A stretch of DNA of 36,080 nucleotides from the IMG/VR virus record IMGVR_UViG_3300025251_000035, positions 1-36,080 of that record; one strand, written 5' to 3'. This DNA is from a virus (lineage: Duplodnaviria; Caudoviricetes). The position numbers and the translations under genes are program-made. The notes beneath the pieces are model-generated. The model was not told where the DNA came from, did not search any database, and saw nothing but the letters and a program-made list of their open reading frames with translations. Positions 17,159 to 35,478 of the stretch are shown in pieces; the stretch's first letter is position 1; every line of letters begins with the position of its first letter.

Positions 17159-17743
17159 TTAGCTATCAACAAATGGTGTGGCTAATGTTCCATCACCCAT
17201 CAGGAATGCCTCAACCCACCAAGTGGTAGTGTTAACGCCAGTAAGTAATATCCATCCACCTGTTAACCAGCCTTGCTCCACCTCACCTAGATCAATAATG
17301 TCGTTAGAGGATGCCGGATGAAAATTATCTGTTTCGCCAATCTCGCCTGTATCAAACAGGAACGCCGTACCTAGAAACCCATCGGTTCCATCAGTCGTCG
17401 CTGTTTTGATCTGTCCCGCCCCAGTAAAGGTTGTTTCAACGAGAAATTTGTAAACGATTCCCGCTGCCGGAGTAGGCAACGTAACCACGATACCACCCGC
17501 TCTGTTAAAACCAAAAACGGTTCCAGTATCGGCTGATGTCAGAGTTTTTGTTGCTGCTGTGATTGACTCATAGTCAGAGAGGATGTTCGCCGCTCCGGTT
17601 AGCTTCAACGTACCCGAACCAGATACATTTCCGCTTGAGTCGATGTCGAAATTGTTTGTGACCGTGCCGGTTCCAGCAGCTTTACTGATTTGCTCAAAGC
17701 CGCCTTCAGACCTAACTGGGCCGTTAAAAGTTGTGTTAGCCAT
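17159..17743 (-). CDS. Putative minor capsid/decoration protein
   Basis: Immediately downstream of the capsid gene; MANTTFNGPVRS start; VVTLPTPAAG motif. Confidence 0.55.
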   Translation of the reverse strand: MANTTFNGPVRSEGGFEQISKAAGTGTVTNNFDIDSSGNVSGSGTLKLTGAANILSDYESITAATKTLTSADTGTVFGFNRAGGIVVTLPTPAAGIVYKFLVETTFTGAGQIKTATTDGTDGFLGTAFLFDTGEIGETDNFHPASSNDIIDLGEVEQGWLTGGWILLTGVNTTTWWVEAFLMGDGTLATPFVDS

Positions 17744-17861
17744 GTCTTTCTCCTGTCTTGGCTAGTGTCTGCCGCATTATTGCGACAGTCAGGAAAAAGA
17801 GAGCGATAACTTACAAGTTATATCATATCAAGCAAGTACCGCTCCCCATATTCCGAGCTAA

Positions 17862-25867: not shown

Positions 25868-25888
25868 AAAATAACTAATTCCTTTTAT

Positions 25889-25994
25889 CTAGGATTATCC
25901 TAGCTAGGAACATCCTAACTAGAATATTCCTTATAAAAAAACAGGATATTCCTAGTATCCTAGGATTATCCTAGTAGGAACCATCTAGGATTAT
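25889..25994. repeat. Array of about six 15-bp palindromes CTAGGA-N3-TCCTAG
   Basis: Perfect copies at 25889-25903 and 25960-25974; degenerate copies at 25904, 25919, 25941 and 25974. Confidence 0.85.
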
Positions 25995-25998
25995 ATTT

Positions 25999-26028
25999 AA
26001 TCTAAAGTATTTTAACTGGGAAAGTCAA
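25999..26028 (-). promoter_or_regulatory. Putative sigma70 promoter upstream of terL
   Basis: TTGACT-18 nt-TAGATT on the minus strand. Confidence 0.45.
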
Positions 26029-26249: not shown

Positions 26250-26780
26250 TTAGTTGAGCCTCGGGTTTGTGGGTCCAGCCAAGGTGGTCAGCGCCTCATC
26301 GTCCGAACCGGGACCAGACTCTGACCGGCCAGCTCCGAGCAGGTCCTCCAACCGCCGGCGCAGCTCACTGGCAACCTCATCAGTTGACCGCTCAATGGTG
26401 ACCTCGAGCTGTTGGTCCTTGAACAATCCACATGCCTTGCCGAGGAGTTCGGCACTGCGGATCTTCGCCATGTCGCTTGGCACTGCCGTATCGAGGAAAG
26501 TACGTAGTGTGTTTAAAACACGTTGCTTGTCTGCGAGTAGCGATGTTGCCTCAGTCCTATCCTTATGGCGTCGAAGCGTTTCTATCCTTTGGGTGATCGC
26601 AGGGTCTTGTGCCAACAAGCTACTTTCCGTGTTGATCGCTGCCGGACTCATCCGCTCTGCATTGTATGCCTCTCGATAAGCATCACTTAGATTCATTCCT
26701 TCGCCGTCATCGCCTCCGACTGCAACGAAACGTGCGAAGTTCCTCTGCTTGGCGGTCAGTCCCGACTTCGGTTTGCCCAT
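26250..26780 (-). CDS. terS: Putative terminase small subunit
   Basis: LTAKQRNFA..SDAYREAYNA HTH-like N-terminus and KIRSAELLGKACGLF; start probably ATG 26780. Confidence 0.72.
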   Translation of the reverse strand: MGKPKSGLTAKQRNFARFVAVGGDDGEGMNLSDAYREAYNAERMSPAAINTESSLLAQDPAITQRIETLRRHKDRTEATSLLADKQRVLNTLRTFLDTAVPSDMAKIRSAELLGKACGLFKDQQLEVTIERSTDEVASELRRRLEDLLGAGRSESGPGSDDEALTTLAGPTNPRLN

Positions 26781-27105: not shown

Positions 27106-27276
27106 TCAGGTTCCACCAGAGGGGGAGCACCCAACAATCGGCAGCATCACTATCAAGACCAAACGAAGGTTTACTTTTTGTCCTTTATTACCACTACAAA
27201 AAGCGTACCCATAGATCCAGTTAAGACCTAGCTGGTTAGGCGTCAGACGAGACATAGCAAAGAGGCACCCACATCT

Positions 27277-27350
27277 CCGTGGGTCTGTGAATGAACACAC
27301 TGACGAGAGTCCGCCTATCATTAGGGAGGACTCAAGAAACTTAACAACGG
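27277..27350 (+). ncRNA. Variant type III hammerhead ribozyme (HH1)
   Basis: GGGT-C^-TGTG/CACA (stem I)-CTGACGA-GAGTCC/GGACTC (stem II)-AA insertion-GAA-ACTT; stem III extended by CCGT/ACGG; predicted cut after 27285. Confidence 0.55.
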
Positions 27351-27361
27351 AGGATTAAACA

Positions 27362-27640
27362 ATGTTTGGACTTGAAGGGGAAATCTTCGGGCTGCTGGAT
27401 AACGGCGTGCTCGCGATCTGTGCGCTACTCGGCATCGATCTCGATCAACGACTTGGCCGCAGCGGAGTGCATGGCGCGCTCTTCGGAGGACTCATTGGCA
27501 ACACTTTGAGCGATGGCATCGGGGCCGTTGCTGATCCGGCATTACGGGATCACGTCCTCGGTATCACTGCCGGTTGCTTGGAAGTATTCGTTGCCGTCTG
27601 GATTGGCGTCCGGATTTGGCAGGCATTCAAAACCGCATAA
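27362..27640 (+). CDS. Small membrane protein, TMEM65/VIT1-like
   Basis: FGLLDNG..GNTLSDGIG helices, about three hydrophobic segments; GGAGG SD. Confidence 0.6.
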   Translation: MFGLEGEIFGLLDNGVLAICALLGIDLDQRLGRSGVHGALFGGLIGNTLSDGIGAVADPALRDHVLGITAGCLEVFVAVWIGVRIWQAFKTA

Positions 27641-27670
27641 TTTATAAACACAACTGATAAGGAGCATGAG

Positions 27671-27937
27671 ATGAGCAAGGTCAATTTTAAAGTGAAAGAA
27701 ATAGGTGAGCTGGTTTTATTCACGCCTCAGAATGAGGACGCTACGAACTGGTGGCTGAACAACGTGCCCGAGGAATTTTACATTAAGGACAGCTTTTCCA
27801 ACAACCTCCTCTCACGCCGACACTATGGCGGTTTCCACACATTCGGCAAATCGTTCGTCGCGCCAATCAAGCACGCACGCAAGATTTGGAGCGACATCTG
27901 CACTGCCAATGGCAGCCATGGCTGGAGTGTTGCATAG
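27671..27937 (+). CDS. Hypothetical protein
   Basis: 88 aa; AAGGAG SD. Confidence 0.7.
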   Translation: MSKVNFKVKEIGELVLFTPQNEDATNWWLNNVPEEFYIKDSFSNNLLSRRHYGGFHTFGKSFVAPIKHARKIWSDICTANGSHGWSVA

Positions 27938-27938
27938 A

Positions 27939-27996
27939 TTCCAACCGATGAGACCAGACGGTAACTGGTCGAAACGCCCTTCGGGGCGTCTTGGAA
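27939..27996 (+). ncRNA. Type I hammerhead ribozyme (HH2; U4C core variant)
   Basis: TTCCAA-CCGATGA-GACCAG/CTGGTC-GAA-ACGCCC(TTCG)GGGCGT-C^-TTGGAA; all three stems perfect; predicted cut after 27990. Confidence 0.88.
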
Positions 27997-28017
27997 AACC
28001 AACAAGAGGAACATGAT

Positions 28018-29052
28018 ATGAAACTACCGAAAATTAATTTAGTGCAAAGCGTAGAGTTCTTGCACGCATGGGTCCTTGCCGGCAATAGCAAGCCGGTGAT
28101 CCTGTGGGGTCCACCGGGAGTCGGCAAGTCAGCGGTCATCAAGGCGCTGGCCGAAGAACTTGAGTACGGCTTCATCGACATTCGATTGTCGCAACTGGAC
28201 CCGGTCGATTTGCGTGGTGTCCCGTCAATAGATGGAGATATCACCAAGTGGAATGTCCCGTCGTGGCTGCCACGCACAGAGACACACGGAAAGAAGGGCA
28301 TTCTGTTCTTCGATGAGCTGTTTCTGGCATCGCGCTCTGTTCAGGCAGCAGCATACCAGTTGCTGCATGATCGCGAACTGGGAGACTACCGTCTGCCGGA
28401 AGGATGGATCATTCTGGTAGCTACCAACAGGCCGGAAGACAAGGCCGGTATCATTGGCGGCACTTTCGACAGTGCGCTGGTCAATCGCTTTGCTACGCAT
28501 TTCGAGATCGTACCTGATGTCGATGCATGGGCAGAGTGGGCCTTAGGTGCTGGAGACGTATTGCCCGAACTGGTTGCCTTCATCCGGTTTCGCCCGGAGC
28601 TACTGCATCAGTTCGCCGAAGGCGGCATTCCGAAAGGCACCGTTGCCTATTCGACGCCGCGATCTCTCGTTGCGGCTTCGGATATTTTGAAGCTGGAACT
28701 TGATGCCAGCCTCGAACAGGCAGCTATCGAAGGTGCACTTGGTGATTCAGTTGCAGCCGAGCTGGCTGGATTCCTGAACATCGTGCGCACCCTGCCCGAC
28801 GTCAATGGAATTCTCAGGGACCCACAGGGCGCTGATCTCCCGACGGAAACATCCACGCTGTACGCTCTTGCGTCGTTACTCGGCAAGCGTGCGGACCGGG
28901 AGAACTTTCAGGCCGCACTTGATTACCTGTCGCGGACCAGCGAAGAGTTCGCAATCCTTGCAGTCGCGATCGCAACGGCACGAGATCCGGACCTGAAGGC
29001 AACCAAGGCGTACATAAATTTCAAAATCAAGAATAAGGACATCAGTATTTGA
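28018..29052 (+). CDS. MoxR-like AAA+ ATPase
   Basis: Walker A GPPGVGKS, DLRGVP, Walker B FFDEL, sensor ATNR, ALVNRF, TPRS; start moved to ATG 28018 after a GAGGA SD. Confidence 0.92.
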   Translation: MKLPKINLVQSVEFLHAWVLAGNSKPVILWGPPGVGKSAVIKALAEELEYGFIDIRLSQLDPVDLRGVPSIDGDITKWNVPSWLPRTETHGKKGILFFDELFLASRSVQAAAYQLLHDRELGDYRLPEGWIILVATNRPEDKAGIIGGTFDSALVNRFATHFEIVPDVDAWAEWALGAGDVLPELVAFIRFRPELLHQFAEGGIPKGTVAYSTPRSLVAASDILKLELDASLEQAAIEGALGDSVAAELAGFLNIVRTLPDVNGILRDPQGADLPTETSTLYALASLLGKRADRENFQAALDYLSRTSEEFAILAVAIATARDPDLKATKAYINFKIKNKDISI

Positions 29053-29055
29053 TTA

Positions 29056-29112
29056 TCCAACTGAAGAGACTGTTTGCACCAGTCGAAACACCGCGCAATG
29101 CGGTGTCTTGGA
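29056..29112 (+). ncRNA. Type I hammerhead ribozyme (HH3; canonical core)
   Basis: TCCAA-CTGAAGA-GACTG/CAGTC-GAA-ACACCGC/GCGGTGT-C^-TTGGA; predicted cut after 29107. Confidence 0.93.
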
Positions 29113-29140
29113 AGCAACTATAACCAAGAGGAAACATGAG

Positions 29141-30028
29141 ATGAACACAACAACTACGATTCAGGAACAGGCGCTGCTCGTGCGCGTCGTAATCCGTAAA
29201 TGGTCGAATGCCAAGACCGATAGCGGATTGACGCAAGCCGTTGAAGCGGACAACAACATCGTCGGCAGCGGTTTGCTGCGCGTCCGCAAAACATTGCTGG
29301 TCGCACCGACCGTCAAGGCGCTCGGCAAACTCTCGGGCCAGATCCGTAACAACATCGTCGGAAAATTGACGGTCCCTTGGAACGAGGATGGAACGCGATT
29401 GCTGCCGGTCGAACTGATCGATCGTTTTGAGAAAGAGCTATCAGATGCCAAGGTTTACTGGGATGAACTCAAGTCAGAACTCGGCGATGATTATGATCTG
29501 GAAATTGAGAAGGCAAAGATTAGTCTTAACGGCGCCTTCAATGAAGCCGATTATCCTGCAAAGCAGGACATTCTCGATCGCTACTCACTGACAGCGCACT
29601 ACTCGCCGCTGCCGACCGGTGGTGATTTGCGGATTTCATTGCCGCAGGCCAAGCTGGACAAACTCCGCTCAGAGGTAGAGGCGAACGTCAAGGGCGCCCT
29701 TGAAAAGGGCACCAAGCAAGTGCACGAACGGGTTGCCCATGCCTTGGGACATCTTGTCGAGAAGCTGGATAAATTCGGCATAGACAAGAATGGCAAGGTC
29801 ATCGGCGCTTTTCGCGATTCAACTGTTCAGAACCTGAACGAACTGGCAGAAGTTCTGCCGTTGTTGAATATCACCGGCGATTCTACGCTGACCAAAATCA
29901 GCAATGACTTGCTATCCCAATTGCGTAATCTTGATCCGAAGAAACTTCGCGACGATACCAGTCATCGAAGGGACGTTGCCGGCAAGGCACGCAAAATCGC
30001 AAAATCACTTTCTGGCTTTTATAGCTGA
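29141..30028 (+). CDS. Helical protein, DUF3150-like
   Basis: TVPW..GTRLLP..F..DYP pattern; lies between AAA and VWA genes; ATG 29141 with GAGGA SD. Confidence 0.6.
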   Translation: MNTTTTIQEQALLVRVVIRKWSNAKTDSGLTQAVEADNNIVGSGLLRVRKTLLVAPTVKALGKLSGQIRNNIVGKLTVPWNEDGTRLLPVELIDRFEKELSDAKVYWDELKSELGDDYDLEIEKAKISLNGAFNEADYPAKQDILDRYSLTAHYSPLPTGGDLRISLPQAKLDKLRSEVEANVKGALEKGTKQVHERVAHALGHLVEKLDKFGIDKNGKVIGAFRDSTVQNLNELAEVLPLLNITGDSTLTKISNDLLSQLRNLDPKKLRDDTSHRRDVAGKARKIAKSLSGFYS

Positions 30029-30038
30029 GGTAATGACA

Positions 30039-31322
30039 ATGACTTCTAATCACAGTAAAAAAAGACAGGCGCTGGACGCCTTGAAAAAAGCACGAGCACA
30101 TCTGGTCGTCAGGCATCCGTTTTTCGGGTGTCTGGCGCTCGGACTGGAGCTGGTCGAATCAGATGACACTGCCACGTTAGCGACTGACGGCAGTTCTATT
30201 TTCTATAATGTCGATTTCACTTTGTCCCTGACGCTGAAGGAACTGGCGTCGGTCATTGCGCACGAAGTGTTGCATGTAACATTCAAGCACCATTTGCGCA
30301 GAGGGACTCGTGATCCTCAACAATGGAATGTAGCAGCGGATTACGCCATCAATGGGATTCTGATCAAAAGTAAATTGTTCAATCTGCCGGACGGTGGATT
30401 GTTTGACCCTAAGTATCAGGACTGGGGTACAGAAAAGATTTACGCTGATCTCCCGAAACCTGAAGAAGATAATCAGAACGATCCCGGCAGCCAAAGCGGG
30501 GAAGCTGATTACGGAGCCGGCGGTCCCGGTCAGTCTGCTGATGATGCAGCAGAAAATGGCGGTGATGCCGATGGTCCGGGTGATGCATCCGAAGACAGCA
30601 AGCCGGCGCCTGTTGGTGAGATATGGGACGCCAAATCCGATGAAGGCAACGAACTTTCTCCGGCAGAAATTGCCTCTGCTGAACGTCATATTGACTCGCA
30701 AATACATATTGCAGCACAGGCTGAGAAGTCCATAGGCACCGGATCAAATGCCGTTGCCGACGGGATTTTAAAAGGATTATCAGAAGTGAGCGTGCCTTGG
30801 GTCGATGTCTTGAAAGACTATTTGCTGGCAACACATGAGGAAGACTATTCTTTGAACCAGCCAAATCGACGGTTCATTCACCAAGGACTTTATCTTCCCG
30901 CTCCTGTGCATATTCCCGCAGGGAGCTTGGTGCATGCGATTGACATTAGCGGCAGTTTGAGCCGCAAAGAACTGGAAATCATAGCCGCCAACATCAATGA
31001 CATCAACGACGTGCTGCAACCTGCACAAACGCATGTCATTTATTGCGACACCACAATTGTCAACGTCGATACTTTTGATGCCGGCGAAGACATAACGCTG
31101 ACTTACTATCACGGGGGCGGCACCGAATTCGCGCCGCCATTCAACTGGTGCCTCGCAAATGATGTACGTCCTGATGCCCTCATCTATTTCACGGATGGGT
31201 GCGGGACTGTCGGCGGTTCCAAGCGTCTTGACGAGGAGCCAGATTATCCGGTCGTCTGGGCAACAAGTTACAAGGCACCACGTTTTGCCGGGAACGAATT
31301 CGGCGGAGTCATCAAAATTTAA
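30039..31322 (+). CDS. HExxH metallopeptidase-like plus VWA-like domain protein (DUF2201-like)
   Basis: HPFFG, TLATDG, HEVLH, WNVAADYAIN; MIDAS DISGS, GGGTEF, YFTDG; start ATG 30039 or 30033. Confidence 0.88.
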   Translation: MTSNHSKKRQALDALKKARAHLVVRHPFFGCLALGLELVESDDTATLATDGSSIFYNVDFTLSLTLKELASVIAHEVLHVTFKHHLRRGTRDPQQWNVAADYAINGILIKSKLFNLPDGGLFDPKYQDWGTEKIYADLPKPEEDNQNDPGSQSGEADYGAGGPGQSADDAAENGGDADGPGDASEDSKPAPVGEIWDAKSDEGNELSPAEIASAERHIDSQIHIAAQAEKSIGTGSNAVADGILKGLSEVSVPWVDVLKDYLLATHEEDYSLNQPNRRFIHQGLYLPAPVHIPAGSLVHAIDISGSLSRKELEIIAANINDINDVLQPAQTHVIYCDTTIVNVDTFDAGEDITLTYYHGGGTEFAPPFNWCLANDVRPDALIYFTDGCGTVGGSKRLDEEPDYPVVWATSYKAPRFAGNEFGGVIKI

Positions 31323-31558: not shown

Positions 31559-31573
31559 TAGAGTCTGATCATC

Positions 31574-31601
31574 TGCAGCCTTCTCAAGAGGGCTGCATTT
31601 T
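31574..31601 (+). terminator. Putative intrinsic terminator
   Basis: TGCAGCCTTC-TCAA-GAGGGCTGCA-TTTT. Confidence 0.65.
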
Positions 31602-31628
31602 GACTAGATTTAATTTTAGGAGAAAAGA

Positions 31629-34990: not shown

Positions 34991-35030
34991 TGGATTGACC
35001 CCTCAATATTTACATGCTGGAATTTTTTGT

Positions 35031-35098
35031 TCTTCCTAGGAAGATCCTAGTTTGTATATATATATACCTAGGAACTTCCTAGGACAGGAATGTCCTAG
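35031..35098. repeat. Cluster of CTAGGA-N3-TCCTAG palindromes flanking a TA dinucleotide tract
   Basis: Copies at 35036-35050 and 35068-35082; GTATATATATATAC at 35054-35067; CTAGGACA-GGAA-TGTCCTAG at 35079-35098. Confidence 0.85.
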
Positions 35099-35478
35099 TG
35101 ATCCTCCTCTGTGAACCGGCGCTCGATGCAAATTTCTGTTCTCGGGTTTCGCCGGTCGATGAAATGATGTATGTGCTTTTCCCTGACAAGTCGGTCGTTG
35201 CGGTACACACCGCATTTTTCCAACAGGTCTAAAATCAGGCTCTCGTCTAAATCCGGACGCTGGGTCCGGTAATAAATGTTCAGGGTAACCTTGAGTTCGT
35301 TGCCTTCCATCGGAGAGGATGGCACCGGGCACTGTTTCTGGAAATCTTTCTCGTATTGCAGGGCTTTTTTAGATTTGATGAAGCGTGGCTTCTTGCTTAT
35401 CCCGTGCCAAACGAGCCGCCGGCTATTTGCCTTTGAACAAGGCTCCGAGTAGATGACACACTCAAAATCATTCATCAA
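35095..35478 (-). CDS. rusA: RusA-like Holliday junction resolvase
   Basis: EPCSKANSR..RPDLDE..ILDLL..GVYRNDRLV..NPRTEI. Confidence 0.75.
   Translation of the reverse strand: MMNDFECVIYSEPCSKANSRRLVWHGISKKPRFIKSKKALQYEKDFQKQCPVPSSPMEGNELKVTLNIYYRTQRPDLDESLILDLLEKCGVYRNDRLVREKHIHHFIDRRNPRTEICIERRFTEEDH

Follow-up and report, generated by a model that had tools for sequence, protein, structure and literature searches.

The window, by which we mean the whole stretch of 36,080 nucleotides that was analysed, is a linear virus record, 61% complete, and its sequence is present in marine metagenome runs. On the minus strand, terminase, portal, capsid and tail genes extend up to position 26780, and primase/helicase and RusA genes run in from the right end. 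Between the structural arm and the primase/helicase side lies a plus-strand operon, divergent from the terminase and reaching from 27362 to about 32700, which encodes two small proteins, a MoxR-like AAA protein, a DUF3150-like protein, a DUF2201 metallopeptidase/VWA protein and small ORFs (Table 1). From its position and content it is likely to be an early operon; a promoter scan was uninformative, with 9 sites found against 7.9 expected.

Table 1. Features of the operon and its surroundings in the window
Feature	Position	Strand	Remarks
Terminase small subunit	26250..26780	-	phrog_51, E 6e-12; the divergent late/structural arm starts with this gene
HH1, type III hammerhead, AA-insertion variant	27275..27352	+	predicted cut after C27285
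92-aa hydrophobic Gly-rich protein	27362..27640	+	start 76 nt past the HH1 cut
88-aa protein	27671..27937	+	variable among strains; 60% identity in L003
HH2, type I hammerhead, U4C	27939..28001	+	core CCGAUGA at 27945-51; predicted cut after C27990
MoxR-like AAA ATPase	28018..29052	+	AAA_5; phrog_1297; N4 gp24-like; start 27 nt past the HH2 cut
HH3, canonical type I hammerhead	29056..29117	+	core CUGAAGA at 29061-67; predicted cut after C29107
DUF3150-like protein	29141..30028	+	start 33 nt past the HH3 cut
DUF2201 protein	30039..31322	+	Pfam DUF2201_N E 7e-44, DUF2201 E 5e-17
Long interrupted hairpin, terminator-like or RNase III-like	31561..31612	+	z = -3.4; terminator-like match

Family searches gave no matches for the 92-aa protein, which from its sequence is likely a membrane protein, and found no family for the 88-aa protein. 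The label DUF3150-like, given in the original prediction, is backed by a tblastn match of 27% identity with a phage MinM2 protein that is annotated as DUF3150, and has no support from Pfam, where the search gave no match. The DUF2201 protein, the start of which was picked by Shine-Dalgarno spacing, combines a metallopeptidase-like N-terminus with a VWA-like domain. A literature search on the AAA/DUF3150-like/DUF2201 gene module found nothing. It is also noted that the starts at 27666-27673, 28013-28020 and 29136-29143 all read ATG-NNN-TG(A), i.e., a two-codon minigene with its stop overlapping the true ATG. Elsewhere in the window, the intergenic stretches 35019-35100 and 25880-26000 hold a long inverted repeat together with clustered CTAG/TCCTAG words, which are possible origin or packaging signals, and a Mu-gpT-DE RNA (RF03012; 64.9 bits, above gathering) lies on the minus strand at 17741-17794, directly behind the major capsid gene. 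A Mu-like phage, which this match brought to mind, finds no support in the families of the terminase and portal.

Scanned with a descriptor on both strands, the whole window contains exactly three hammerhead motifs, all on the plus strand and intergenic, as the original prediction had placed them and with the same three cuts. One motif in all arose from 100 Markov shuffles, both strands of each being scanned, and the both-strand scan and the shuffles together rule out chance or a strand artefact. For HH2 (27939-27996) and HH3 (29056-29112) the three-way junction is both the MFE and the centroid structure (z = -2.6 each). They begin 1 nt past the stop at 27937 and 3 nt past the stop at 29052, respectively, in agreement with the predicted distance of within 4 nt. 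In the comparison with the Rfam hammerhead models that had been proposed, HH2 matches Hammerhead_1 (RF00163) over 27939-27996 with 31.5 bits (E 4e-4; the gathering score of 34 is not reached), HH3 is absent from the matches to that model, both match RAGATH-1-hammerhead (RF03152) weakly (28.5 and 28.8 bits vs a gathering score of 56.3), and HH1 has no Rfam match at E<=1. The GUC cleavage triplet and the A15.1-U16.1 pair are present in all three motifs. The canonical core C3 U4 G5 A6 N7 G8 A9 is found in HH1 (CUGACGA) and HH3, whereas HH2 carries C at position 4 (U4C, 27946); G12 A13 A14 follow C11.1 directly in HH2 and HH3, whereas in HH1 two A lie between. These two departures, together with the pairing of HH1 stem III with a ribosome-binding site described below, had been overlooked. 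The three-helix anatomy is backed by covariation in relatives. As read from structure and alignment, the three motifs are hammerhead ribozymes, predicted to cleave themselves, that lie at gene junctions of a single phage operon.

In HH1, stem I (27286-89/27296-99) is closed by the loop AAUGAA, the core occupies 27300-06, stem II (27307-12/27328-33) is followed by the extra AA (27334-35) and then by GAAA (27336-39), the extra AA sitting between C11.1 of stem II and G12. An extended stem III, in which CUCCGU (27275-80) pairs with ACGGAG (27347-52), covers the Shine-Dalgarno sequence of the first gene; for the short form, 27277-27352, the MFE is not the hammerhead fold. A type II reading via the hairpin 27266-27284 was rejected because there is no GAAA ahead of the hairpin. 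A kiss between loop I and loop II, AUGA (27291-94) with UCAU (27318-21), is present in the window and lost in the closely related locus L003, for which reason it was left aside; no conserved base-paired tertiary contact was found in HH1.

With a pattern of the 3' half, ten structured type III members were found among 119 loci; in all of them stem I has 4 bp and the loop reads AAUYAA, two traits that the pattern did not require. The reciprocal pattern of the 5' half matched 101 times, in 100 viral loci; stem I is perfect in 98, and UCAA precedes GAAAC in all 98 of these, two of which are copies of the window phage. In prokaryote genomes the same 5'-half pattern gave 97 matches, three with stem I and none with UCAA, i.e., the AA variant, and among 50,697 cultured phage records no blastn match covered 80% of HH1. 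In the alignment of 45 distinct members, 99.8% of 585 cells are paired and 90 cells are changed on both sides; none of 500 shuffles paired as highly, in a test inflated by the kinship of the members, and slid controls gave 18-50%. The U-A and G-C pairs (A15.1-U16.1 and cleavage-triplet test) are present in 45/45 rows. Model R1 matches HH1 at 69.8 bits, by construction. Among the 100 variant loci (79 of them at least 2 kb long), an AAA homolog occurs in 59, a DUF3150-like gene in 49 and a terminase gene in 42, and since these genes recur in its loci the AA variant marks this operon type. The HH1 subfamily is thus, judged from the alignment, a covarying, virus-restricted hammerhead variant outside Rfam, and HH1 is probably active despite the insertion. 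Related type III motifs with the same GAAUUAAC loop I are seen in L224 (two further motifs), L327, L333 and L340; here a 2-nt bulge inside stem II takes the place of the AA at the stem II base, with the spacing to GAAA unchanged. This equal spacing suggests a register shift as the origin of the AA variant.

Both type I motifs have a pseudoknot between loop II and the 3' tail, which in HH3 has 4 bp (UUGC, 29074-77, with GCAA, 29114-17) and in HH2 has 3 bp (GGU, 27960-62, with ACC, 27998-28000) as against 4 bp in relatives. In L003, where the AAA protein is 99% identical, HH2 shows the compensatory core change from C3-G8 to U3-A8, a covariation known from natural hammerheads (PMC3088659), and its stem II is rewritten in sequence yet fully paired. 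When viral sequences were scanned with a type I pattern, over 24 of 64 parts of the collection, there were at least 119 matches, of which 93 are distinct among the matches listed. In 58 of these 93 listed matches stems II and III have at least 4 bp; the remaining 35 were set aside and left out of the family counts. Among the 58 listed members the core is CUGANGA in 53, CCGAUGA in four and UUGAUAA in one, and at least four Watson-Crick pairs between loop II and tail are present in 36, compared with a mean of 13.4 and a maximum of 23 in 2000 shuffles; among these listed matches the pseudoknot covaries, with letters differing between members. An ORF stop lies no more than 8 nt from stem I in 33/56 type I members among the matches listed. 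The view that structure is under selection is strengthened by compensatory changes in stem, core and pseudoknot alike. Contigs of four other runs have U at 27946, and those of three have U at 27959. HH2 of the window strain is probably attenuated, given U4C and the 3-bp pseudoknot; U4C is a natural variant which 'considerably decreases activity in vitro' (PMC3088659). It is expected that cleavage at HH3 should be fast and that cleavage at HH2 would probably be slower, giving partial processing.

The survey of homologous AAA loci that had been suggested shows intergenic ribozymes recurring at the same junctions. The variant loci, found by the HH1 pattern alone, contain 22 distinct AAA genes that are 27-34% identical to that of the window; by a loose test a core motif lies directly upstream of 22/22 and directly downstream of 21/22, and by a strict test upstream of 18 and downstream of 9; these junctions were also inspected by eye. 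By comparison, among AAA genes of <40% identity that were found by protein alone, the core is upstream in 6/144 and downstream in 2/138, and among AAA loci of at least 40% identity, which include a copy of the window phage, it is upstream in 9/34 and downstream in 3/29, the strict core counts being lower bounds since U-U stem bases escape the strict pattern. In a FastTree tree of 99 chosen AAA rows, the 22 flanked genes form one clade apart from the clade of the window's own gene, and because all fall in one clade they represent a single lineage. A second lineage is the window's clade, to which L005 and L006-L010 also belong. The ribozyme before the AAA gene is of type I in L006-L010, type III in L005 and type II in L156, and that after it is of type I in L005 and L092, type III in L107 and Twister-P5 in L015. 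Thus, as far as class can be assigned from motif and fold, the ribozyme class is interchangeable at the AAA junctions, in phages down to about 30% AAA identity. Four kinds of ribozyme occupy the same two junctions of one AAA gene in distant phages, and therefore the selected trait would be a cut there, with predictable product ends. We also observe, in L097:134-1849, a run of four type II hammerheads, each separating small genes that precede an AAA/VWA pair, and, in L107:2750-2940 and L386, type III motifs behind AAA whose stem II is branched and has multiple hairpins.

Beside the AAA gene of L115 (AAA 81% identical) and L086 (70%) there are no hammerheads and other structured elements stand there; the ribozymes are thus, from gene order and motif content, dispensable in close kin. 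In L086 a structured element occurs four times at gene junctions (1419, 1829, 2800, 3918), including both sides of AAA, and occupies sites where relatives have ribozymes. It consists of a hexamer, a hairpin and then a 5-bp hairpin with a 6-nt loop able to pair with the hexamer. It has no Rfam match, and a search of the collected loci for its topology gave 42 matches, the convincing ones being three L086 copies only; a similar element lies ahead of AAA in L115 (1150-1205). The L086 element is a candidate for an unknown ribozyme or a processing site. In the window, the hairpin 31561-31612 lies at a later operon junction, bounded by a stop codon and the Shine-Dalgarno sequence that follows, and contains no hammerhead. 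In its homolog (L115:803-850) the inner stem differs in sequence yet pairs, and the U-tract is present in the window only. As a widespread RNase III element it was rejected: 110 loci gave 83 distinct matches, and apart from the copies of the phage itself all of these were unconvincing.

The explanation that we consider probable is that the ribozymes would cut the transcript, without protein, into a leader and gene blocks having their own ribosome-binding sites and protected ends. We infer the cleavage, the product ends and the purpose from the anatomy, the covariation and the conserved positions. The products would be the leader, a 705-nt two-gene mRNA (27286-27990), a 1117-nt mRNA of AAA only (27991-29107) and an mRNA for the DUF3150-like and DUF2201 proteins (29108 on). 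Downstream of each cut the RNA would carry a 5'-OH at its first nucleotide, have a start codon 27-76 nt further on and keep its own Shine-Dalgarno sequence; upstream of each type I cut it would terminate with stems II and III and a 2',3'-cyclic phosphate. Such ends would resist 5'-monophosphate-dependent decay and 3' decay, an idea of end protection that is drawn from the biochemistry of RNase E and RNase J. The likely purpose would be that the genes are uncoupled, with stability and translation set individually. Counting for this explanation, only three motifs occur in 36 kb, all sense and intergenic, and triple prophage hammerheads cut in vitro and in E. coli (PMC3088659). Counting against it, two of the three cores are off consensus, 4/18 consensus hammerheads were inactive, and a two-nucleotide insertion elsewhere in the core impaired a saltern hammerhead (PMC3088659). 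The dispensability of the ribozymes in close kin and the single clade of the 22 flanked AAA genes, which makes these genes non-independent, also weigh on that side. The protein-independent dicing put forward in the original prediction thus agrees with the anatomy, the covariation and the conserved cut positions, with the model and the layout being already in print (PMC3088659). The fate of 5'-OH products, stabilisation or destruction, depends on the host.

Compatible with this dicing, HH1 may in addition be a cleavage-gated translation switch, which we regard as a tentative reading. In the uncut RNA the 5' strand of stem III would pair with the Shine-Dalgarno sequence of the first gene, and after the cut this strand would depart and the ribosome-binding site would open. 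An anti-Shine-Dalgarno word (CTCC, CCTC or TTCC) lies within 14 nt before GUC in 40/59 distinct HH1-family members, compared with 9.7% of background 14-mers, and GGAG follows GAAAC within about 20 nt in 45/45 aligned members. With the active fold enforced, GGAG pairs with the 5' strand (P>0.5) in 42/59 members vs 17/59 shuffled leaders, and in the HH1 copy L354 the pairing is 0.99 vs 0.53. By contrast, with free folding the effect is modest, the mean unpaired probability being 0.47 before and 0.63 after the cut and 0.56 for shuffled leaders. Moreover, the word is absent in 19/59 members, 14 of which are one subgroup that forms stem III without the Shine-Dalgarno sequence, the members are kin rather than independent, and the pairing may merely brace a 3-bp stem III. 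The fuller proposal, that HH1 is an undescribed virus-restricted subclass which is active with two A between C11.1 and the general base G12 and which is also a natural switch timing early translation, is a speculative one that we would put at rather low probability. If HH1 is such a switch, RNA catalysis would time the onset of early phage translation.

It is improbable that the cuts instead serve to destroy, with 5'-OH products being degraded by a host nuclease, as in glmS, and with the ribozymes acting as timers for switching off early genes. The glmS RNA is degraded once it has been cleaved (PMC6765202), and the position and content of the operon would point to early, short-lived expression. 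However, the cuts fall after stops and 21-41 nt before starts (45/58 type I members with a called start, among the matches listed), whole genes keep their own Shine-Dalgarno sequences, and no cut lies inside any gene. It is quite unlikely that the motifs mark the junctions in a modular array of gene cassettes, as repeats kept for recombination or spread, with HH1 and HH2 among those that no longer cut. The genes between the motifs do vary among relatives, contigs of other runs carry HH2-like sequence with different flanks as loose ends, and HH2 of the window has U4C and a weakened pseudoknot where contigs of four runs have U at 27946; yet selection acts on structure and core rather than on sequence identity, unrelated ribozyme classes occupy the same junction, and U4C occurs in 4/58 otherwise intact type I members among the matches listed. 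Finally, we give hardly any credence to paired ribozymes that cut and re-ligate into circular or spliced mRNAs such as a circular AAA message, for although the two type I motifs on either side of AAA share a near-identical stem I, which would permit end exchange, Perreault et al. sought such products and detected none (PMC3088659), and the flanking motifs in relatives often differ in type. Destruction, inert cassette junctions and circularisation are less likely than dicing.

Compared with known families, HH1 shares the open stem III, CUGANGA, GAAA and the GUC site with the type III hammerhead (RF00008), and differs from it by the invariant AA between C11.1 and G12, the fixed 4-bp stem I and the AAUBAA loop. 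HH2 and HH3 share the type I topology with Hammerhead_1 (RF00163) and RAGATH-1 (RF03152); they have a full stem II of 5-6 bp and the loop II/tail pseudoknot, whereas the RAGATH-1 model has a 1-bp stem II and an upstream hairpin. RNase III cuts T7 early mRNA between the genes of a polycistron; unlike that processing, the cuts predicted here would need no protein and would leave 5'-OH and cyclic phosphate ends.

The nearest precedent is that of Perreault et al. in 2011, who described clustered prophage hammerheads flanking genes or short gene blocks, such as the triple around ardA of Agrobacterium tumefaciens, found that three tandem sets cleave in vitro and one triple set in E. coli, and proposed processing into operon- or gene-length mRNAs (PMC3088659). 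Like those clusters, the locus here has multiple sense-strand hammerheads, not all of one type, at gene junctions within a transcript, and it has the stem I/II pseudoknot; it differs in being that of a marine phage with a MoxR AAA/DUF3150-like/DUF2201 module and in the AA insertion of HH1 (PMC3088659). The core variants given in the available text are U3-A8, A6C, A6a, U13a, U15.1-A16.1, 2a/2b and U4C, with no insertion between 11.1 and 12 among them, and in the main text 'ribosome' and 'translation' have 0 occurrences and Shine-Dalgarno pairing is not discussed (PMC3088659). In the text of its 11 supplements, with Dataset S1 gapped and partly covered, there is no CAAGAAAC or AATTAAC string. 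HHphage of the haloviruses HF1/HF2 is, like HH1, a core-insertion variant that heads an early polycistron near the first start codon, with a mapped 5' end no more than 3 nt from the cut; its insertion is near C3/stem I and its host virus is archaeal, whereas that of HH1 is between stem II and G12 (PMC3088659). The AA variant is not described in the available text of PMC6765202, PMC10085705 and PMC13725137, where the role of phage-linked ribozymes is called unresolved. A literature search, in which subscription papers including the original twister and RAGATH papers were thinly covered, brought up no AA variant and no natural Shine-Dalgarno pairing. The layout of a multi-hammerhead operon and the idea of dicing have been published since 2011, whereas the AA variant of HH1 and the reading of its Shine-Dalgarno pairing did not turn up in the literature searched. 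Engineered hammerhead switches hide the Shine-Dalgarno sequence, and cleavage frees the ribosome-binding site. The HH1 subfamily, which is invisible to Rfam, would widen the hammerhead core that is tolerated and would offer a concrete mechanism of that kind, a hidden ribosome-binding site released by cleavage.
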